Assembly: GCA_964355645.1 (NCBI GenBank)
Contig: CAYHDI010000001.1
Span: 92,897-156,896 of the forward strand
DNA: 64,000 nucleotides
Reading direction: 5' to 3'
Origin: an uncultured Candidatus Saccharibacteria bacterium
Lineage (GTDB): Bacteria > Patescibacteriota > Minisyncoccia > Phycocordibacterales > Zambryskibacteraceae
Part shown: piece after piece, positions 3,915-40,087 of the stretch
Layout: the number at the start of each line of letters is the position of its first letter
Numbering within the stretch: position 1 is the first letter of the stretch
Made by a program: the position numbers and the translations under genes
The notes under the pieces: generated by a model
The model's database searches: none
What the model was told of the DNA's origin: nothing
Seen by the model: only the letters and a program-made list of their open reading frames with translations

Positions 3915-5127
3915 GCGCCCACAAAGTCAAATCATTTTTATTCATGAAGAAGAGATAATCTTCATTAGGAGAAAGGCTTGGATTAATCAGATCTATATCT
4001 GTTCCAGAGTCTTTTTTAGGTTCAAAAAGAATTTCGCTTGTGTAGGTGATAATACTAAATCTCCAAATTTGATCAGAAAAATGAGTTATCCCTTGATACC
4101 AATTATCAGGTTCACCAGGACCAATAGTTGTGCTTGGAGTTCCACAATACAAAACCCCCGCACTCTTTTTGCTCCAAATACATTTATCTGCAAACGTTGT
4201 GGGCAAAATTTGGTCGCTTAAGCCATCAGACAAGTTTTTAAATTCAAACACAGTCTTACCATTTGAAACATAGGAGTAAACAACCCTCTTCCCGTCCGAG
4301 CTTTCTGAAAAGGTCAAAGCGTTTAATGGCCCAATAATTTTAGTTAATCTTCCTGTCGTTGGATTTAAATTATAAGCGAAACCCGAGACGGCTGAACTGG
4401 CTTTAGTAACCAAACTAACAATATTTGTATTTGGCCAAGACATTCTCCAATCAGTGAATCCAGATGAAAGGAGATTTGTCCCCTTGCTTCCATCAAAGGC
4501 GGAGGAGACAATCGATCCAGAATTTCCTAAAACATAAACCAACAGATTAGTTGGTCCCACAGACACATCTTTGATATCACCGATTAGATTTGTGGCTTTT
4601 ATTGTATACAAACTATCGGTAGTTGTTGCTTTGGGGGCGGTGAGGGACAAAGAAATGTTTTCAACTGTGTCGCTATCCCCTTTCAAATCTCTCAAAAGAA
4701 CTGATGAGCCATCGTTCTTGAAATAAGCCTCTTGGATTTTTGGAAAAGTGGTATTTGTGATTTTAGTTTTTTCTAATGTAATCGGGCTGACATCATAAAT
4801 ATGACCAGTAGCCCGATCTACGTAGCGGACGACCGTCTCCCCAGACTTTTTGTTGAAGGCAACCATTCCGGCGACAGGTTGTTCAGAAACACGAAAGAGT
4901 TTAGCTATGGGTTTCCCTTGAGCATCAAGGCCTGTAGGAGTGTTTTGACCGGTTGAAGTATTTGCTCCGATAGGAATATTTTCTCCACCTTGTCCAAAAG
5001 GTGAACCGGTTCCAGTTGTTGGAATTGCCGGTGTGGTCGGTTTGCTAAAAAAGAAATACCAACTTAAAAAACTAACAATTATTACCGCGACGATTCCGAT
5101 TATTATTACTGTAGTTTTTCTGGTCAT
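3901..5127 (-). CDS. hypothetical membrane-anchored extracytoplasmic protein (first gene of T4SS-like cluster, reading direction reversed)
   Basis: N-terminal TM helix (VIIIGIVAVIIVSFLSWYFFF) followed by a long beta-rich domain. No recognisable motif. Confidence 0.5.
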   Translation of the reverse strand: MTRKTTVIIIGIVAVIIVSFLSWYFFFSKPTTPAIPTTGTGSPFGQGGENIPIGANTSTGQNTPTGLDAQGKPIAKLFRVSEQPVAGMVAFNKKSGETVVRYVDRATGHIYDVSPITLEKTKITNTTFPKIQEAYFKNDGSSVLLRDLKGDSDTVENISLSLTAPKATTTDSLYTIKATNLIGDIKDVSVGPTNLLVYVLGNSGSIVSSAFDGSKGTNLLSSGFTDWRMSWPNTNIVSLVTKASSAVSGFAYNLNPTTGRLTKIIGPLNALTFSESSDGKRVVYSYVSNGKTVFEFKNLSDGLSDQILPTTFADKCIWSKKSAGVLYCGTPSTTIGPGEPDNWYQGITHFSDQIWRFSIITYTSEILFEPKKDSGTDIDLINPSLSPNEDYLFFMNKNDLTLWALKLN

Positions 5128-7120: not shown

Positions 7121-7546
7121 CTATAGCGGTTTGTTTAACCTTTTCCCCACGTCCTCTATTTTGTTGGTAATTTTCCCCGCTCTTTCTAAAGATTTATCCA
7201 AAATTGGTAAGGCTTTCTCAATCTTACCCTCAGCTTTGTCCCAAGCCATGATTAGAATTACGTCCAATGTCCAAAGAGGCAGTGCGTCTATAATCGGGAG
7301 CTCTTCTCCAACGAAAGAGGCTATCAGTGAAAGTATTTTCTTGGCATTCAATTTCACTCCCCTCAACCAGAAATAGGCGGGTAATACCATTCCCACTACG
7401 ATATCTATAAATCTGTTAGCAATAACTCCTATAGCAAACATGTCCAAAACAATTTGAACCACATCTACTGTGGCCACAGCCCCAATGACCAATCCCCATT
7501 CGAAGTTTGGTATTTTACTGCCCTGTTGTGGTTGTTGCTCCGGCAT
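7121..7546 (-). CDS. small two-TM membrane protein (possible VirB3-like accessory)
   Basis: 141 aa with two hydrophobic helices and a charged C-tail. Its start overlaps the end of the VirB4 ATPase gene. Confidence 0.4.
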   Translation of the reverse strand: MPEQQPQQGSKIPNFEWGLVIGAVATVDVVQIVLDMFAIGVIANRFIDIVVGMVLPAYFWLRGVKLNAKKILSLIASFVGEELPIIDALPLWTLDVILIMAWDKAEGKIEKALPILDKSLERAGKITNKIEDVGKRLNKPL

Positions 7547-9395
7547 TATTTATAGGATTAGGTGACACAATAGGAACTTCCTTTTCTGTTTCAAGTTCCT
7601 GGCGCGCTTTTTTCATGGCAAGGACTTGTGAAGGGTCTGAAGTAATGATTTGGTCCTCGGTGTATGAAGCGATAGCTTTGATGGCCACATGCTTAAGCCC
7701 AGCGAAGAAGATTCCTTCCCCCACATCAGATTCTAGAAGAAGATATTTCTCTTCATCGGTCAGATTAAATGTTTTCTGTAGGTCATCAATAATAGTTGGA
7801 GATTGTTTGAGGAGAATTTGAATCGAAGAGTTTGTGATGATAGGCAAACCGTATGGAGATTTGAGGAAGTCGCCAACGTCTTGAGTGATGGTGGCTATCC
7901 CAAGATAATATTTGCGTCCACGCTTGGCTAGGCCCATGAGGAATGAAGCCGTGTCTTCGGATTTCATCATCCACCACGCTTCGTCTATCACGAGGAGCCT
8001 CTTCTTGAGCTCTTTGCGGATAGCATTCCAGATGAAGTGCATAACGATATACATGGCGATAGGTTTGAGCTCGTCTTCCATGTCTCGCAGAGAGAAGACC
8101 ACGAACTTTTTGTTTATGTCTACATTTGTGGGTCGATTAATGAAGCCGGACCATGTACCTTTCGTGTATTTGGTCAAACGTTGAGCCAGCGATTCTCCTC
8201 CCTCGAGACCGGAGAGAACAAGTTCGAAGTCGGACATGAGAGGAGGCTCAACGGTTCTGAAATCTGATTCAGCGGTGATGTCTTTGAGCGCATAAGTTTC
8301 GGTGATGGCTCGGTCAATAATCGCATCCTCTTCGGCCGTCAGTCCGCCCATCATCAATCTGAACAATCCGACGAGATTAATAATATTTGAACGCAAGACA
8401 TTCGCGCTTGATTCATCCGGACCGGGTACAGGGAGGTCGAACGGATTAATGTGGTGTTCAGAATTAAGAGAGATTTTGAAATATCTTCCACCGGTGGCCT
8501 CGGCCATGTATTCGTATTCATTTTCTGGATCGAGACACAAAACTTCGGTGTCAAACATCAAAGTTCGAAGAATTTCTAGTTTGGTGGCATAAGATTTTCC
8601 TGCCCCAGCCTTCGCGAACATGATTGAGTTGTAGTTTTCGAGGGAGAATCGATCGAAGAGAACGAGAGATGAATTGTGTCTGTTTATCCCGTACAAAATT
8701 CCTTTGTCTGAAGTGAGGTCGAATGAGGTGAATGGGAAGAGTGATGAAAGCGGAGAAGAATTCAATTTAGAATGCACGGCGAGAAGGTCGTTCCCGAGAG
8801 GAAGAGTGCTTTGGTATCCTTGTTCTTGTTGAAAGAGGGCCGGTTTGATATATACAAGCTTCGCATCAAGAATAGATTTGATTTCCGTTTCTACTTTGTC
8901 GAGTTCTGCTTCGTTGTCTGCATAAATAGTGATGTACAAACCAACATCAAAAAGTTTTTCTTGAGCTTGTTGAAGTTGGTCGCGCAAATTCTCGAGGTCT
9001 TGATAAGCCACATCAAGCATTGGGTCACGCACGAGACCTTTGTCTTCTCTCGTATGAATCTGGCTCTGAACCTCGGCTACTTTCTTTTGAAATTGTCTGA
9101 GCACTTTTGAAGTTTCGACCGGGTGAACAAAGATAGAAACGTCGAAAACTTTATCCATGTTGATAATCGGGGCGAACCAACTTTCAGAAAGGAATCTAGG
9201 ATAAGAGATGACGAAGAAACTACGAAGAATCTTTTCTCCAAGGTTTATTTCTTTCGGGGTGACGGAGAGAGCCGAAGGGGCGATGATGTCTTTCAATTCA
9301 AGCACCCCGGCTTGAAATATTTCTTGAGGCAGGATAGAAGCGATGTCCGGCTTCGCGTTTTCTTTCCCTCCAAATAAGTTTGAAAAAAAACTCAT
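7515..9395 (-). CDS. VirB4/TrbE/PrgJ-family T4SS ATPase, C-terminal (ATPase) portion
   Basis: Walker A FAKAGAGKSYAT and Walker B LLVIDEAWWMM with the surrounding conserved VirB4 architecture. The VirB4 N-terminal domain is absent from this ORF. Confidence 0.85.
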   Translation of the reverse strand: MSFFSNLFGGKENAKPDIASILPQEIFQAGVLELKDIIAPSALSVTPKEINLGEKILRSFFVISYPRFLSESWFAPIINMDKVFDVSIFVHPVETSKVLRQFQKKVAEVQSQIHTREDKGLVRDPMLDVAYQDLENLRDQLQQAQEKLFDVGLYITIYADNEAELDKVETEIKSILDAKLVYIKPALFQQEQGYQSTLPLGNDLLAVHSKLNSSPLSSLFPFTSFDLTSDKGILYGINRHNSSLVLFDRFSLENYNSIMFAKAGAGKSYATKLEILRTLMFDTEVLCLDPENEYEYMAEATGGRYFKISLNSEHHINPFDLPVPGPDESSANVLRSNIINLVGLFRLMMGGLTAEEDAIIDRAITETYALKDITAESDFRTVEPPLMSDFELVLSGLEGGESLAQRLTKYTKGTWSGFINRPTNVDINKKFVVFSLRDMEDELKPIAMYIVMHFIWNAIRKELKKRLLVIDEAWWMMKSEDTASFLMGLAKRGRKYYLGIATITQDVGDFLKSPYGLPIITNSSIQILLKQSPTIIDDLQKTFNLTDEEKYLLLESDVGEGIFFAGLKHVAIKAIASYTEDQIITSDPSQVLAMKKARQELETEKEVPIVSPNPINNAGATTTTGQ

Positions 9396-9443
9396 AGACT
9401 AATTATCAATGAACAATGAACAATAAACAATGGACAGAAATGA

Positions 9444-9803
9444 TCATGTTTTTAATTTTTTCTTAAAACCACCCAATTGCCGGGCAATACTAGACGCTTT
9501 TTCTTTGGCTATCAAGAAGTCTTTTTGATCAATTAGGTTGTTTGTTTTTAGAATGTCAACATTTGCTACTGTTTCATATAAAGAACCCAGCGCTATATCG
9601 AGAAAGTGGGAAAAATCCTTTCTAGAAGCTTTTCCGCTTCCTTCCGCAATATTAAGCACTATTGAGGAACTCGACCTTATCAGTTGAGCACTTAACTCAA
9701 ATCTGTATTCCTTTGGTAATTTTCTTATTATTCCTAGACAAAATGAAGACAAATCCTGGGCATCTTTGTAAACTGGCCAGTCTAGAAAATTGAATTGGTT
9801 CAC
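9444..9803 (-). CDS. four-helix-bundle protein (TIGR02436-like, '23S rRNA intervening-sequence protein' family)
   Basis: 119 aa with GTG start; LNIAEGSGKASRKDFSHFLDIALGSLYE is characteristic of the family. Lies between the two halves of virB4. Confidence 0.75.
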   Translation of the reverse strand: MNQFNFLDWPVYKDAQDLSSFCLGIIRKLPKEYRFELSAQLIRSSSSIVLNIAEGSGKASRKDFSHFLDIALGSLYETVANVDILKTNNLIDQKDFLIAKEKASSIARQLGGFKKKLKT

Positions 9804-9846
9804 TTGTTAATTGTTTATTATTTATTGTGCATCAAGCCTTTGAAAG

Positions 9847-10551
9847 CTAATTAGCTTTCAAAGGCTTTTCTGATTCCCCCGGGTTAAAGGCCTTGTAGAA
9901 CAATTCAATCACCTCTTCCGTCCCAAGGCGAGCCACTCGAATTCCCGTACGAATTAATCCTTGTTCAACTACACTCAAACGCTCTTCGAGCTGAGTGCGG
10001 TTCTCTTCGAATCCAGCTTCGGCCACAGCGGATTTTTCTTTTATGCTTTGCCCACCGAAAATTCCACCGAGGCTAGAAATCTTCCCGGCAGAAATTGTGG
10101 CCGGAGAATAAGAAACAACAACAAAAAAGTTCTTGGTCATGATGTTTGTGCTCTCGGTGAAGCTCTTGATGAATTCGATGTATTCTTTCGTTTGAATTTT
10201 CATCAAGTCATTCACCTGCTTTTTCTCCTGTTCTTCAAGCAGGGCGATGTATGGTCGGATATCAAGCTTTCTAGACTGGATGACAATTTGCACAGAAAAA
10301 TCCAGAGAATTTAGGAAGTCTTGAAATTGGAAAATAATCGCATTCTTCTCATCTTCTGATTTCAAAGAGAAGTTGAGGGACGAAGCAAGGAGGATGGCGC
10401 GCATTCCGCCGTCCTTCAAGAGGAGGATGCCGTCGCGAACTTCCTGAATCGGGACAAATTGTTGGGTCGAGTTTTTACTCGGGGACATAGAATCATTATA
10501 TATTAACAATAGACAATGGACTATAAACAATAAACTATAAATAATTAACAA
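9847..10551 (-). CDS. VirB4 N-terminal domain encoded as a separate ORF (likely true start at 10488, MSPSKNST)
   Basis: FVPIQEVRDGILLLKDGGMRAILLASSLNFSLKSEDE aligns with the VirB4 N-terminus (YIGHLSDHIVLLEDGSIMSIARIDGVAFELEE). Its stop codon sits in the centre of a 34-bp perfect palindrome. Confidence 0.6.
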   Translation of the reverse strand: MLIIYSLLFIVHCLLLIYNDSMSPSKNSTQQFVPIQEVRDGILLLKDGGMRAILLASSLNFSLKSEDEKNAIIFQFQDFLNSLDFSVQIVIQSRKLDIRPYIALLEEQEKKQVNDLMKIQTKEYIEFIKSFTESTNIMTKNFFVVVSYSPATISAGKISSLGGIFGGQSIKEKSAVAEAGFEENRTQLEERLSVVEQGLIRTGIRVARLGTEEVIELFYKAFNPGESEKPLKAN

Positions 10552-10574
10552 AATACAATAAACAATGGAATACC

Positions 10575-11033
10575 TTATTGTCTATTGTCTATAGTAACTT
10601 GTTTATTATCCTGTGTAACAGGATTGTTATTATCTCGAATATCTAAACTCCAAGACAAATCTTTGAGCTTGGATTCTGAAAGTTTAGGCACATAAATTTG
10701 TGGGGCTGGCTTATTGTTCATCGCATTTTGTTCATTGTTTATCATTGGCTTCTTTTCCTCTTTCTTCCAAACATAAAGCTTCGAAGAGGTGGAGTAGTGC
10801 AGAAAATCTTCAACCACTTGAATAAACGGACGTTCGTTCACTTTATAAAACGCGAGAGCTGCCCCGAAGACTGCGACAGGTATAGAAAGGATAATGGCCA
10901 CGAACATCGGCAATAGACTGAAGAAGATGACGCACAACCCCACTGCCCCGGCGATATAGATGAATTGTTTGAAGGTCAAAGGCCCGAACAGTTTGTCTTC
11001 AATCTCAATGAATTGAGGTACTTGGAATCGCAT
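10575..11033 (-). CDS. PrgI/VirB3-like T4SS membrane protein
   Basis: MRFQVPQFIEIEDKLFGPLTFKQFIYI, two TM helices, and ...FIQVVEDFLHYSTSSKLYVW match the PrgI family (pCF10 PrgI VRVPKEIREYKEKIIFGLNLRQFICL...YIQSIYRYQTSPKKRYY). Directly upstream of virB4, as in Gram-positive T4SSs. Confidence 0.6.
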   Translation of the reverse strand: MRFQVPQFIEIEDKLFGPLTFKQFIYIAGAVGLCVIFFSLLPMFVAIILSIPVAVFGAALAFYKVNERPFIQVVEDFLHYSTSSKLYVWKKEEKKPMINNEQNAMNNKPAPQIYVPKLSESKLKDLSWSLDIRDNNNPVTQDNKQVTIDNRQ

Positions 11034-11119: not shown

Positions 11120-11644
11120 CTAATGTACGAACAGAAGATAACCAACCACCACAATTATTGCCACGGCTAGTATTTCCAGTGGTGTAGTGGGTATTTCCAC
11201 ATTTGGATAACAGACTGAATGCCACGAATAACCATTCTTGAGAGTAGTTACCTCTTGGTAATCAGGAAATATCGGTAATGAGCATGTCGGGCAATTGTTT
11301 CTTGAAACTCTCAGTGGCCCATTTGAACCACATCCGTGGCACACTGATTCCACTTTTAGAACTCCTTGAGAAGACAGAGCTTTACCACACTCGCAACATC
11401 TTAGAGTTTTTGTAGTGACATTTACTGTACGAATTCTTTCATCCAAACAGCTTGCATGAATGTAGTGGCTCGACCAACCCAAAGGTTCACTTGTACGAAC
11501 CATTTGGTCTAGACGACCCATTTTTTGGCACAACCTACACTTAACATAATCAAAACGTTTTTCTCCACACCTCGGACACTTTTCAGCTGATTGGCTTATA
11601 GAATGTCCACATTTCACACACGGAACGAGTTTTATCGAAGACAT
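11120..11644 (-). CDS. multi zinc-ribbon protein with C-terminal TM anchor
   Basis: Repeated CxxC pairs (CVKCGH...CPRCG, CRLCQ, CCECG, CHGCG, CPTCS) and a C-terminal hydrophobic helix (LAVAIIVVVGYLLFV). A rho-independent terminator follows (GGAGCCGACCAGATTTTGGTCGGTTTTTTT on the minus strand, about 11046-11075). Confidence 0.5.
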   Translation of the reverse strand: MSSIKLVPCVKCGHSISQSAEKCPRCGEKRFDYVKCRLCQKMGRLDQMVRTSEPLGWSSHYIHASCLDERIRTVNVTTKTLRCCECGKALSSQGVLKVESVCHGCGSNGPLRVSRNNCPTCSLPIFPDYQEVTTLKNGYSWHSVCYPNVEIPTTPLEILAVAIIVVVGYLLFVH

Positions 11645-12345: not shown

Positions 12346-14685
12346 TTATTCTTTTGGTTTTTCCTCACCACTTTCGGTTGTTTTTTCTTTGGCACCCCCC
12401 TCATCCTTCTTTTCATCTTTGATATCACCCGCTTCTTTAAGTATAGCCTCTAGCTGTTCTTTAACAGGCTTTTTACCCTTTCTCAAATTTGCAGCAGCTT
12501 GAAGTGAAGATTGTTTTACAGCTCCAACAAGAAACACCCTGTCTAGACTCACCAGACCAGGATTTGAGATATTAAGAGCTCGAGATTGCGTTCTAAGTTC
12601 TCCAATCCCTTTAGTTTCCTTTATCGCCTCTCTTCTAGTTTTGTATTCCTCTGAAATGGCCTTTTGAGAAAGAACACTTTGTTTCTTAGCGATTTCAAAT
12701 TCTTGGTTCTTGATTATAAGTTCTTTGTTTAGAGCTTCTTTTTGGGCATCGCTAGCTTTATTAATTTGATTAACGAGATTTTTTACTTGTTCGTCAAGAT
12801 CTTTTTCCTTTTTAAGGTTAGGATCTTTTCCTAGAGCAGTTTTCTCTTCTTCGTTTAAAGCCTTCTGTCTATTATCAAATTCTTTTTTATCAACACCTGT
12901 TAGCTTATCTACCTTTTCTTGAGTACTACGCACTTTCTCTTCAACTCCAGAGCTTGAAACCAATTGTTCAATCCCCCTCTGTCGGCGGGCCTCGTGTGCT
13001 TCTTGTATTGGCTTTGCTTGTTCCTCAAGTTCGGCCATTCGTTTTAATGCTCCAGCACGTGAGTCAACAGAAAGGCTTGGATTTTCAGACAGTTTCTTTG
13101 CTGTTTGTATATCATTTTCTAATTTGACCAAAACTTCTGGTTTTTTTAGAGTCGAGTCAACCGTTGTCGTTGCTGTTGCTCTGACTTTCTTTTCTTTTTC
13201 TTTTGCCTCATCTCGATCTTGTTTTGCTCGATCAATTACAGTATCTGCAGGAGCAAGAGATTTGGCGAATTCCTCTTTTTTCTTTGCTTCGTCTTTTATC
13301 ATTTGTTCACGCCCGCCCTTTCCACCAGCTTTTCCTGCCCCAAGAGAATCGTTTAATCCTGTTCCGCGCAAATCAAAACTTCCCTTCGCAGCCTTACTAG
13401 CAGCCGCAAGTTGTAATCTAGCTCGAATGCTTCCCTCGGCAGCTCTTTTCTTAAGATCTTCATTATTTAAATCAGCAACAGCTTTCGCACCAATAGTCCT
13501 TCGACCGGCGTACCCAACCAACCCAAGCGTGGCCCCTCCTGCAAATCCCATAGCCGCGCCCGTCATTTTACTTACCATTCCCCCCGCTTTATTCGCCATA
13601 TTCTTTGAAAGGATAAGAGTAGCGATGAGGAAAACAATTACCACAACAAAGTTAAACAACAGTGATGCGGAATCCGGGTTTATCACATCTTGTCCGTTAA
13701 CAGTTTTCATTGATCCCGTGAGAGCGTCTGCCAAGGTTCCCGTTCCCTTCGGCATGTGTTGAAAAATATTGATAGTAATCCAAGTTAGCAACATATATAA
13801 AGGAGCGAAGAAAGCTTGATTAAGAAGAGCATCTTTCCACTTTCCCCATACACCCTCAATACCCGGGATGACCCATGAAACAAACGCAATAGGAGAAAGA
13901 ATTAAAACGAAAATAAGAACCACATATCGAATCACAAACATCATGGCAATCGCGAAGAACACGAAAGCAGCAATCAAGGAAACAATTGAGCCCATCACAC
14001 CAATAGTGGCAAGGTTAGAAGGGTCGAGACCGCCAGCCATACTCCAAATTGACTGCAGACTAAGAGGCTCCATCAGAGCATTTGAAAGTCCAGTATTTAA
14101 AATTTGATCTGGTGTGCCGGCTGTGCCGCCTGGTACCATTGCATTATAAAAAGTAACAGCGAGAAGGTTCGAAGCATCTATCACTACCTTGGTAAAGAAC
14201 AAACTAAAGTTAATCAGGATGGCGGCGATGACAATATTTACAATTAGTTTCCTCGTATCTTTCCCCACACCCAAAATCATTTGAATCGAAGCATAGAGTA
14301 ATACAAAGATAAAACCCATGTTGGCTATGTCGCGCAAAGTGCCCCATGCAGTGTCTATGGCTGAAATCTTTCCGTAATTTTCTGCCACATTAACGACAGT
14401 GTAATTAACTACATAATTTAGAATAATTCCCGACAATCCGGTAATGAGAGAGACTATTTTAAGGACAAGAATCGCTATTGGAGTGACAACTGAGCCGATG
14501 ACGTCTGCTCCAGCTTGTTTCCAACCAGAAGGAGTAAGAGGACCACAAGCGGGGTTCAGGTAAGCTAAAGGATTTGATGCTGAACAGTCGTCGGCGTGTG
14601 CAACGTTTGGCCAAACACTTCCCCCTACTCCAAACATAACAATGAAGAGTAAACCAAATGTGATGATATGAGAATATTTTTTCAT
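12346..14685 (-). CDS. VirB6/TrbL/PrgH-like polytopic membrane protein with long charged coiled-coil tail
   Basis: Signal/TM N-terminus, at least 6 predicted TM helices in the first ~400 aa, then a ~350-aa Lys/Glu-rich tail. Architecture and position upstream of prgI-virB4 match VirB6-like proteins. Confidence 0.55.
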   Translation of the reverse strand: MKKYSHIITFGLLFIVMFGVGGSVWPNVAHADDCSASNPLAYLNPACGPLTPSGWKQAGADVIGSVVTPIAILVLKIVSLITGLSGIILNYVVNYTVVNVAENYGKISAIDTAWGTLRDIANMGFIFVLLYASIQMILGVGKDTRKLIVNIVIAAILINFSLFFTKVVIDASNLLAVTFYNAMVPGGTAGTPDQILNTGLSNALMEPLSLQSIWSMAGGLDPSNLATIGVMGSIVSLIAAFVFFAIAMMFVIRYVVLIFVLILSPIAFVSWVIPGIEGVWGKWKDALLNQAFFAPLYMLLTWITINIFQHMPKGTGTLADALTGSMKTVNGQDVINPDSASLLFNFVVVIVFLIATLILSKNMANKAGGMVSKMTGAAMGFAGGATLGLVGYAGRRTIGAKAVADLNNEDLKKRAAEGSIRARLQLAAASKAAKGSFDLRGTGLNDSLGAGKAGGKGGREQMIKDEAKKKEEFAKSLAPADTVIDRAKQDRDEAKEKEKKVRATATTTVDSTLKKPEVLVKLENDIQTAKKLSENPSLSVDSRAGALKRMAELEEQAKPIQEAHEARRQRGIEQLVSSSGVEEKVRSTQEKVDKLTGVDKKEFDNRQKALNEEEKTALGKDPNLKKEKDLDEQVKNLVNQINKASDAQKEALNKELIIKNQEFEIAKKQSVLSQKAISEEYKTRREAIKETKGIGELRTQSRALNISNPGLVSLDRVFLVGAVKQSSLQAAANLRKGKKPVKEQLEAILKEAGDIKDEKKDEGGAKEKTTESGEEKPKE

Positions 14686-39589: not shown

Positions 39590-39660
39590 TGCGGGATGGG
39601 GGAATCGGACTCCCGACTACAGTTTGGAAAACTGTCGTTTTACCACTAAACTAATCCCGC
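39590..39660 (-). tRNA. tRNA-Gly (anticodon TCC)
   Basis: Hand-folded cloverleaf: acceptor GCGGGAT/ATCCCGC, anticodon arm ACAGT-TTTCCAA-ACTGT, T-loop TCCGATT. One A-C mismatch in the T-stem. Confidence 0.65.
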
Positions 39661-39672
39661 ATTGGTATTCTT

Positions 39673-39743
39673 TCGGGGCGCCGAGAATCGAACTCGGACC
39701 ACATGCTCCCAAAGCAAGTATACTACCACTATACTACGCCCCG
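39673..39743 (-). tRNA. tRNA-Pro (anticodon TGG)
   Basis: Acceptor CGGGGCG/CGCCCCG, anticodon loop TTTGGGA, T-arm CCGAG-TTCGATT-CTCGG. Confidence 0.6.
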
Positions 39744-39757
39744 TTTATATTCATCTT

Positions 39758-39828
39758 TCGGGCTGCCGGGACTCGAACCCGGGTCTCACGAACCCGAATC
39801 GTGAATAATACCTCTATAATACAGCCCG
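39758..39828 (-). tRNA. tRNA-Pro (anticodon CGG)
   Basis: Acceptor CGGGCTG/CAGCCCG, anticodon arm CACGA-TTCGGGT-TCGTG, T-arm CCGGG-TTCGAGT-CCCGG. The D-arm is atypical. Confidence 0.55.
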
Positions 39829-39916
39829 TAGGAATTTATCCTAGCATGGAGAAGGTTATTTACCAAAGAAAAATAAACTCGATTTTTTTCGTAAGATAAG
39901 ATATTATCATCTAACT

Positions 39917-39987
39917 GCGGGTATGGTTCAGTGGTAGAACAACTGGTTGCCAATCAGTAGATGGGAGTCCGATTCTCCCTACCCGCA
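39917..39987 (+). tRNA. tRNA-Gly (anticodon GCC)
   Basis: GCGGGTA...TGGTTCAGTGGTAGAACA...ACTGG-TTGCCAA-TCAGT...GGGAG-TCCGATT-CTCCC-TACCCGC-A folds as a clean cloverleaf. Confidence 0.7.
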
Positions 39988-40013
39988 CTGAGAAAAATAT
40001 ACTAATATCGATT

Positions 40014-40087
40014 GGTGCCCCCGCTAGGACTCGAACCTAGAACGACTGCTTCGAAGGCAGTTATGATATCCATTTCACTACGGGAGC
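40014..40087 (-). tRNA. tRNA-Arg (anticodon TCG), CCA encoded
   Basis: Acceptor GCTCCCG/CGGGGGC with a 3' ACCA, anticodon arm ACTGC-CTTCGAA-GCAGT, T-arm CTAGG-TTCGAGT-CCTAG. Confidence 0.7.

Follow-up and report, generated by a model that had tools for sequence, protein, structure and literature searches.

A four-helix-bundle gene cassette resembling rRNA intervening sequences lies between the two genes of a VirB4 ATPase in an uncultured Patescibacteria genome

Introduction

Intervening sequences (IVSs) are short insertions in ribosomal RNA genes, known from Leptospira, Coxiella and Xanthomonas and from rRNA genes of the Candidate Phyla Radiation (CPR). The IVS in the 23S rRNA gene of Coxiella is 428-444 nt long, has a stem of 28 bp formed by its terminal repeats, carries an open reading frame (ORF) for the four-helix-bundle (4HB) protein S23p with tandem heptamers upstream of it, and is excised by RNase III (PMC4990558). 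Insertions in CPR rRNA genes likewise contain ORFs of the 23S_rRNA_IVP family (PMC11270868). Where rRNA IVSs come from, and what they and their conserved 4HB ORF do, is unclear more than 25 years after the discovery of these elements (PMC4990558). Here we describe a 4HB cassette of similar construction between two protein-coding genes, which encode the N-terminal part (N) and the ATPase part (C) of the secretion ATPase VirB4. It is located in a stretch of 64,000 nt (referred to as the window; contig CAYHDI010000001.1, positions 92,897-156,896 of the forward strand, assembly GCA_964355645.1) from an uncultured Candidatus Saccharibacteria bacterium (GTDB lineage Patescibacteriota; Minisyncoccia; Phycocordibacterales; Zambryskibacteraceae).

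In our interpretation this part of the window is the start of an operon resembling a type IV secretion system (T4SS) in an uncultured member of the Parcubacteria (Patescibacteria). In this lineage VirB4 is naturally encoded by two adjacent genes, one TrsD/TraD-like for the N-domain and one TrsE/TraE-like for the ATPase, and the gap between them would be occupied by a cassette that is built like an IVS and processed as RNA. We assign a probability of roughly 55% to this reading. A previous, sequence-only reading of the same DNA had arrived at a different picture, in which an intact virB4 was split by the cassette and tolerated as two polypeptides, or in which a splicing intron restored a single mRNA.

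Results and Discussion

VirB4 is encoded by two genes

The operon genes run on the minus strand in the order PrgI/VirB3-like gene, N (213 aa), 4HB gene (119 aa), C (626 aa) and further T4SS-like genes, among them a T4SS pilin (PF18895). The co-directional arrangement of the N, 4HB and C ORFs had been recognized before. For N an ORF from 9847 to 10551 had been given; its end is correct, but the homologue lengths place the true start at the ATG at 10488 rather than at the TTG at 10551. Among the matches listed, the N homologues (120 proteins) have approximately 190-233 residues, mostly 211-216, and their starts align with ATG 10488. N and C sum to 839 aa, in good agreement with the earlier estimate of about 840 aa.

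The C piece matches NF045971 (E = 1e-110), the TraG P-loop domain PF19044 (E = 8.6e-25) and PF12846 (E = 4.1e-11), and the Walker A and B motifs assigned to this ORF are present in its translation (AKAGAGKS and LLVIDEAW). The N piece matches NF045975 (E = 2.8e-12, profile positions 100-234), NF045971 (E = 1.3e-6) and TIGR00929 (E = 0.0024, profile positions 3-137). On the NCBIfam profile NF045971 (VirB4-like CD1110, 752 positions) N covers positions 1-129 and C positions 185-734, collinear and without overlap, and two other VirB4 profiles resulted in the same layout of N followed by C. Of the two Pfam models that had been suggested for the alignment, PF12846 indeed matches C, whereas PF03135 does not match N; its tail weakly matches C. 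A Pfam-A search gave no match for the N piece, and a PDB sequence search with N returned only a chance match to a P450 (E = 1.8). The TraC-like domain PF26593 is pre-annotated on all N homologues among the matches listed.

Among 1.8 billion cluster representatives, searched exhaustively, 2460 relatives of N were found. The best 150 of these are nearly all stand-alone proteins of about 100-440 aa. One of them, P0358 (797 aa), is fused: its residues 7-214 match N with 43% identity and residues 225-796 match residues 29-599 of C with 57% identity. This fused homologue, together with the match to the first 129 positions of NF045971, bears out the earlier assignment of N as the N-terminal part of VirB4.

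Stand-alone N-domain proteins number more than 8000. A bipartite VirB4 has been described for Gram-positive conjugation systems, namely TrsD/TrsE (pSK41/pGO1) and TraD/TraE (pIP501). There, as in the window, the ATPase gene is closely preceded by one for a stand-alone homologue of the VirB4 N-terminus, about 200 residues long. The N piece matches the stand-alone TrsD/TraD family NF041427 with E = 1.1e-5 (profile positions 12-144 of 201). Its score of 25.4 bits, however, is far below the family cut-off of 200, and it belongs to a chromosomal CPR operon with PrgI-like, TrbL-like and T4SS-pilin genes. Judged by these matches, N and C together make one VirB4, and its bipartite form is of an already known kind.

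The split is older than the insert

For comparison we used 80 species-representative genomes, which were retrieved with the N protein as query. N and C are separate genes in all 80 of them. The orthologous locus always consists of two genes, and an uninterrupted virB4 in a relative lacking the insert was found in none. The relatives are naturally split without a 4HB gene in between, which the sequence-only reading had itself named as the observation that would speak against a split caused by the insertion.

The gaps between N and C are mostly a few to about 30 nt long. In the three closest relatives on long contigs (L001, L003 and L004; N 85-90% identical) they measure 1-24 nt and contain no gene, with junctions such as TAAtATG or ...AAACTAAtATGAGC.... 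Inserts of more than 400 bp were observed at 10 of 81 N/C junctions, seven of them with a 4HB gene; the others are cassette-free or have short elements without an ORF. A comparison with the empty sites of L001, L003 and L004 resulted in approximately 450 bp of extra DNA in the window (9396-9846), and the stop codon of N and the start codon of C turned out to be the ancestral ones. The 4HB gene with its flanks is indeed an insertion relative to most relatives, and the palindrome at the N stop codon marks its upstream junction, as had been noted. By sequence comparison, the insert arrived secondarily between genes that had long been separate.

A cassette that broke up an intact virB4 is therefore scarcely credible, and so is an intron that restores one mRNA. 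N and C do cover the full VirB4 profile and a fused relative exists, but all 80 relatives are split, nearly all without an insert, the stop and start codons are ancestral, and the stand-alone N proteins run into the thousands. A search against Rfam gave no family in the region, neither at the gathering threshold nor at E<=1. Since N keeps its ancestral stop, C keeps its ancestral start and no Rfam match was obtained, the insert is not a splicing intron of group I or group II. Among the earlier suggestions the "intron-like element" nevertheless comes closest: the insert resembles an rRNA intervening sequence that is not spliced. For annotation this means that a small gene between the halves of a "split" CPR enzyme need not have caused the split.

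Architecture of the cassette

Downstream of the N stop codon the right arm of the palindrome, the left inverted repeat (IR-L), the 4HB ORF and the right inverted repeat (IR-R) follow each other (Table 1). Folding of 9380-9880 predicted a hairpin at the stop codon and a long-range stem of IR-L and IR-R that loops out the ORF, both in the minimum free energy (MFE) and in the centroid structure.

Orthologous inserts with repeats of the ACAAT type are present in six genomes (window, L012, L085, L087, L089 and L090). The 31-nt core of IR-R, TTGTTTATTGTTCATTGTTCATTGATAATTA, is identical in five of the six and carries one substitution in L089. As this core is kept despite saturated synonymous divergence, it probably has a sequence-specific role, e.g. 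as a promoter or a protein site. Four of the six have the same 6-7-bp string near the two ends of the insert (TAATTAG, TTAACTT, TAATTA and TGATAAT in the window, L085, L089 and L090); in the window they lie at 9846-9852 and 9399-9405. These direct repeats resemble target duplications but do not exceed a permutation null.

The cassette supplies a -10-like hexamer, GATAAT, in front of the C gene (Table 1), which at this leaderless-type spacing may serve as a promoter element for C. Hexamers of the form TATAAT or GATAAT exactly 6 nt before the downstream ATG were also seen elsewhere: in the window at 10495-10500 as well as at 9402-9407, in L001 at about 4984-4989, and at the 3' ends of cassettes in L019, L025, L043 and L035. 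The spacing between hexamer and ATG is the same at cassette-bearing and cassette-free junctions (L001: TGTATAAT-ATATTT-ATG). Such a spacing would give leaderless mRNAs and suggests gene-by-gene promoters inside what looks like one operon.

In several respects the cassette is constructed like an rRNA IVS. Both are approximately 430-450 nt long with terminal inverted repeats that form a stem of 20-28 bp around an ORF; the ORF belongs to the same family (PF05635/TIGR02436) and is adjoined by tandem heptamers; both have short versions without an ORF and are sporadically distributed among relatives. There are also clear differences. The cassette is hosted by the gap between two protein-coding operon genes and not by the tip of an rRNA helix (loop of helix 9, 25 or 45). 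It is preceded by a perfect, host-templated hairpin, whereas an IVS replaces the tetraloop of its host. Finally, the cassette ORF is under strong purifying selection, while that of Coxiella is decaying. Because it lies outside rRNA genes and its RNA processing is proposed by analogy, we do not class the cassette as a member of the IVSs.

A host-templated hairpin at the N stop codon

The perfect palindrome of 34 bp at 9834-9867 reported earlier is unique in the window, and a match was obtained in 0 of 100 shuffles. The stop codon had been placed exactly at its centre; in fact it (9849-9847) begins one base past the centre (9851/9850). Ancestral coding sequence, the last six codons of N (KPLKAN), makes up the left arm (9867-9851). 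New to the locus is the right arm (9850-9834), an inverted copy at the start of the insert that includes the stop codon. At the empty sites of L001, L003 and L004, N ends with ...EKPLK(T/V/A)(N/K)* and no palindrome is present.

A perfect stem of at least 9 bp across the N stop codon was observed at seven of the ten insert-bearing N/C junctions and at two of the other 71; both of these exceptions are mini elements without an ORF. All six orthologous inserts bear the hairpin. Its arms have about 12-20 nt and differ in sequence, and in each case the right arm mirrors the N codons of its own locus; the comparison is of per-locus stems, as the hairpin centre shifts between loci. Between the window and L012 a hand count gave seven differences in the left arm, all of which are mirrored in the right arm. 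We read this arm-to-arm covariation as a sign that the hairpin is actively kept perfect, and it may protect the 3' end of the N message. In a hand tally, stop-codon hairpins were 100% Watson-Crick despite a diverged coding arm in the window, L012, L085, L087, L089, L090, L019, L035, L075, L083 and L094.

The palindrome could also be a chance feature or the ordinary intrinsic terminator of N, both of which we regard as very improbable. A consensus terminator scan does flag the hairpin, though on the antisense (plus) strand, where the complement of GAAAAG codons provides a T-rich tail. On the sense (minus) strand the hairpin is followed by GAUGCACAAUAAA, without a U-tract, and we rejected the terminator assignment. 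Chance is contradicted by the shuffles, and neither explanation accounts for a hairpin that is confined to junctions with a cassette or mini element and absent from those free of cassettes.

The four-helix-bundle protein

The middle ORF had been described as a TIGR02436-type four-helix bundle, and we found it to match this family with 92.5 bits (cut-off 24, E = 1.8e-26). It also matches PF05635 (23S_rRNA_IVP) with 93.4 bits (cut-off 33.8, E = 1.2e-26) and, at E = 2.3e-9, the PDB entry 2gsc. Its closest homologues (72-89% identity) are all located at the same N/C junction.

Among the six orthologues the proportion of nonsynonymous differences (pN) in the 4HB gene is 0.06-0.22, whereas that of synonymous differences (pS) is saturated at 0.72-0.95. 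The host genes are equally saturated, with pN of 0.08-0.20 for N and 0.04-0.09 for C. These values indicate strong purifying selection on the 4HB protein and a high age of the inserts. With pS saturated in cassette and host genes alike, synonymous divergence does not separate gain from loss, and no recent movement is visible in it.

The protein shares its fold family, a pentameric four-helix bundle, with Avd of diversity-generating retroelements. Its scores, however, are below the cut-offs of the Avd models (PF22296, 22.3 bits, cut-off 40; NF033474, 22.6 bits, cut-off 80). We rejected Avd on these scores; moreover, the neighbours are VirB4 N and C and not a reverse transcriptase, and no pair of template and variable repeats was seen in this stretch, the rest of the window not having been scanned for reverse transcriptases.

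An ORF-less element between PrgI and N

A second element, without an ORF, is present at the PrgI/N junction upstream (Table 1). The spacer between the two genes measures 86 nt in the window, 7 nt in L001 and a few nt in close cassette-free relatives. Tandem Repeats Finder (TRF) detected period-7 arrays with 8.9 copies at 10505-10566 and 2.4 copies at 10576-10592. Their repeat type, ACAATAR/ATTGTYT, is that of the 4HB cassette 650 bp downstream. Because the two elements share one repeat type, the N gene is bracketed by complementary arrays (9804-9828 and 10527-10551, 88%). The left heptamer array of the element supplies the last codons of PrgI (..QVTIDNRQ*), and PrgI of the relatives ends earlier.

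The element folds into a long imperfect hairpin (z-score -3.45). Similar ORF-less elements occur in L085 and L089 at the PrgI/N junction and in L083, L051 and L074 at the N/C junction. The z-scores of these elements in the relatives range from -1.7 to -5.7; for the empty junctions of L001 we obtained -1.1 and +0.5. Relatives with a 4HB cassette between PrgI and N (L019, L025 and L043) have hairpins of 14-16 bp where the window has a 7+7 hairpin.

Recurrence of the cassettes

A jackhmmer search over all ORFs of the loci L001-L084 identified 28 4HB genes and two GxxExxY (TIGR04256) genes in 25 of the 80 genomes. All 30 cassette ORFs are on the operon strand and at only three junctions, x/PrgI, PrgI/N and N/C. 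In L019 (2742-5040) three 4HB cassettes occupy three consecutive junctions, with repeat units of the CTAGAAGC type, CAACAAC and TTACGAC. Each cassette has its own repeat unit (ACAAT-type, CAACAAC, TTACGAC, GAGTTAC, CCTAAAT, GAAG, GAGCT or TACGAAAATTATGCGAA), and the two arms of a cassette always match one another. The inverted-repeat score (ungapped Watson-Crick) has a median of 13 for the cassettes versus 6 for 560 control ORFs, and two thirds of the cassettes exceed the 99th percentile of the controls. In MFE folds the median number of long-range pairs is 29 for the cassettes versus 9 for PrgI, which is a poor control for such counts since adjacent cassettes often lie in its flanks and the two ends of long AT-rich RNAs pair with one another.

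A metagenome census with a single 4HB protein as query gave 71 further loci, of which 32 exceed the 99th percentile of the controls, many with heptamer-like units. Distant 4HB homologues with repeats were found on other CPR contigs at groES/groEL, rpsR/efp and tktN/tktC (a split transketolase). In the groES case a stop-codon hairpin of 13 bp is built from the last groES codons. The three cassettes are located in L094 (2413-2900), L092 (2455-2898) and L096 (2476-2894), respectively. The cassette phenomenon is more general than the sequence-only reading suspected.

Other cargo was also seen. GxxExxY genes (PD-(D/E)XK-like) fill the N/C slot in L067 (4613-5145) and L082 (1642-2437); their cassettes are flanked by a perfect 17-nt inverted repeat, TACGAAAATTATGCGAA, and have no stop-codon hairpin, and the one in L082 additionally holds an ORF for a small membrane protein. 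In L089 (1235-1764) the position upstream of PrgI, which is a 4HB cassette site in other genomes, holds a small YafQ-like toxin/antitoxin pair.

In a neighbour-joining tree of N and C the cassettes are distributed over five lineages, each with cassette-free sisters. This patchy distribution calls for repeated gains at one and the same site or, alternatively, for numerous precise losses.

One may ask whether the 4HB protein has simply been domesticated, either to assist the machinery for secretion or DNA uptake or to regulate the operon, with the repeats and the hairpin as ordinary regulatory or mRNA-stability signals. The purifying selection, which is comparable to that on N and C, the concentration of the closest homologues at one junction and the presence of cassettes in this operon in 25 of 80 relatives would all fit. 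On the other hand, the same operon lacks a 4HB gene in the majority of relatives, the three closest among them. The same slots accept unrelated 4HB subfamilies and a PD-(D/E)XK-like GxxExxY protein, and the same kind of cassette is found in groESL, rpsR-efp and transketolase operons. We therefore consider this explanation improbable.

Proposed mechanism

Based on the architecture of the cassette and on the analogy to rRNA IVSs we propose the following sequence of events. The cassette, which is on the operon strand, would be transcribed with the operon or from the promoter-like sequences at its edges. Within the transcript, pairing of the repeats would give a stem of 20-28 bp with the 4HB ORF in its loop. 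RNase III may cut this stem, as it does in rRNA IVSs, and cleavage would separate the messages of N, 4HB and C. Once separated, the N message would carry the perfect hairpin, built from its terminal codons and the inverted copy of these, as a cap at its 3' end. The terminal GATAAT of the right repeat, 6 nt before the start codon of C, may keep the downstream gene expressed. What the sequences show directly is the anatomy of the cassette, its recurrence, the covariation between the hairpin arms and the purifying selection on the cargo; transcription, RNase III cleavage (by analogy to rRNA IVSs), protection by the hairpin and the arrival of the cassette are inferred.

Several observations weigh against this mechanism. 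GATAAT was not called as a -10-like element by the consensus promoter scan. IR-R is conserved in sequence as well as in pairing, which is more than a plain stem for RNase III would need. About 110 hairpin base pairs across eight loci are, by hand tally, all Watson-Crick without a single G.U pair; hence a templated (template-switch-like) correction at the DNA level fits better than stepwise compensation in RNA. In the stems of the inverted repeats the counts of G.U and A.C are symmetric (66 versus 53), so nothing shows that sense RNA rather than DNA is the selected structure. Moreover, not all cassettes have the hairpin, which is absent in L084, L067, L082 and most of the metagenome loci, and in the window no U-tract follows it in the sense direction.

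A rival explanation is set at the DNA level, and we regard it as unlikely. The cassette would be a structure-defined mobile element, similar to a transposon or a miniature inverted-repeat transposable element, with heptamer arrays as terminal inverted repeats, and any RNA processing would be incidental. The palindrome would be the footprint of insertion or upkeep, in which fold-back or template-switch synthesis copied the target end in inverted orientation. Such an element would account for hairpins that are Watson-Crick throughout and whose right arm always mirrors the local target, and for inverted repeats without an excess of G.U. It also agrees with the patchy occurrence on the host-gene tree, where each of the five cassette-bearing lineages has sisters with clean junctions, with the different cargo (4HB, GxxExxY) in the same frame, and with ORF-less derivatives that share the repeat type of an ORF-bearing cassette in the same genome (window, L085, L089 and L074). 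However, no transposase or recombinase was found in or beside any cassette examined. The repeat sequences are wholly different between cassette lineages, unlike ends recognized by a transposase. The direct repeats at the ends are not above the permutation control, the saturated synonymous sites of cassette and host show no recent movement, and a mechanism acting on DNA alone does not predict that every cassette is co-oriented with its host operon. The RNA-processed, IVS-built cassette remains our preferred reading.

Relation to other structure-defined elements

Repetitive extragenic palindromic (REP) sequences and bacterial interspersed mosaic elements (BIMEs) are palindromes defined by their structure that are located in operon gaps and could stabilize the upstream mRNA. 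Integron attC cassettes are promoterless single-gene units recognized by structure and not by sequence. Like REP/BIME, the palindromes of the window are structure-defined and lie in operon gaps; like integron cassettes, the elements appear to be promoterless single-gene units recognized by structure rather than sequence. In contrast to REP/BIME, the stop-codon hairpin is unique to its site and templated by the host gene instead of being a dispersed repeat. In contrast to both REP and integron elements, inverted repeats are present on both sides of the ORF, and no integrase, attI or RAYT gene is nearby.

A literature search, which was incomplete in its coverage and is no proof of novelty, gave no account of IVS-like 4HB cassettes between protein-coding genes. 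The recurrence of the IVS architecture in such gaps provides a larger and more varied sample for studying the movement of these elements and the role of their protein. Tentatively, IVS-type elements might extend well beyond rRNA and form a broad class of single-gene cassettes that are defined by structure, have heptamer-array inverted repeats, carry 4HB or GxxExxY cargo and colonize gaps between tightly linked genes of core operons across Patescibacteria, and the strongly conserved 4HB pentamer might recognize the heptamer arrays and mediate mobility, maintenance or RNA processing. If this possibility, which we hold as doubtful, were true, it would give the ORF family of the IVSs a function.

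Features of the locus and neighbouring genes

The coordinates of the features around the N/C junction are listed in Table 1.

Table 1. Features around the N/C junction of the window (positions refer to the window).
Feature	Position	Strand	Basis
PrgI/VirB3-like gene	10575-11033	-	PF12666, E 3.1e-12
7+7 hairpin ATCCTGT tac ACAGGAT inside the 3' end of PrgI	10608-10624	.	Fold / sequence scan
ORF-less heptamer-repeat inverted-repeat element at the PrgI/N junction	10489-10607	-	TRF, inverted repeats, fold z -3.45
Stand-alone VirB4 N-domain gene, 213 aa, TrsD/TraD-like, PF26593 TraC-like	9847-10488	-	Profile matches and fused homologue
Perfect 34-bp palindrome (17+17), AAGCCTTTGAAAGCTAATTAGCTTTCAAAGGCTT	9834-9867	.	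Repeat search, comparison with empty sites
IR-L, left inverted repeat of the cassette	9805-9832	-	28 nt, 82% complementary to 9409-9436
Four-helix-bundle (4HB) gene, 119 aa, GTG start, cassette cargo	9444-9803	-	PF05635, TIGR02436, PDB 2gsc
IR-R, right inverted repeat	9407-9436	-	4.3 tandem heptamers ATTGTTY (TRF)
GATAAT (9402-9407) + 6 nt + ATG of the C gene; -10-like hexamer, cassette-supplied	9396-9407	-	Read from the sequence
VirB4 ATPase gene, 626 aa: distal part of the N-domain and P-loop ATPase	7515-9395	-	Profile matches

Upstream of PrgI, in the region 11120-11644 / 12346-14685, the operon encodes a 174-aa double zinc-ribbon protein with a hydrophobic C-terminal tail and a multi-pass membrane protein of 779 aa whose C-terminal region is long and charged. 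The equivalent of the latter in L004 carries PF19590 (TrbL_3), and the 779-aa protein is therefore probably VirB6-like. An Rfam scan of the window gave no rRNA. Five tRNA genes are clustered at 39590-40087, on both strands.

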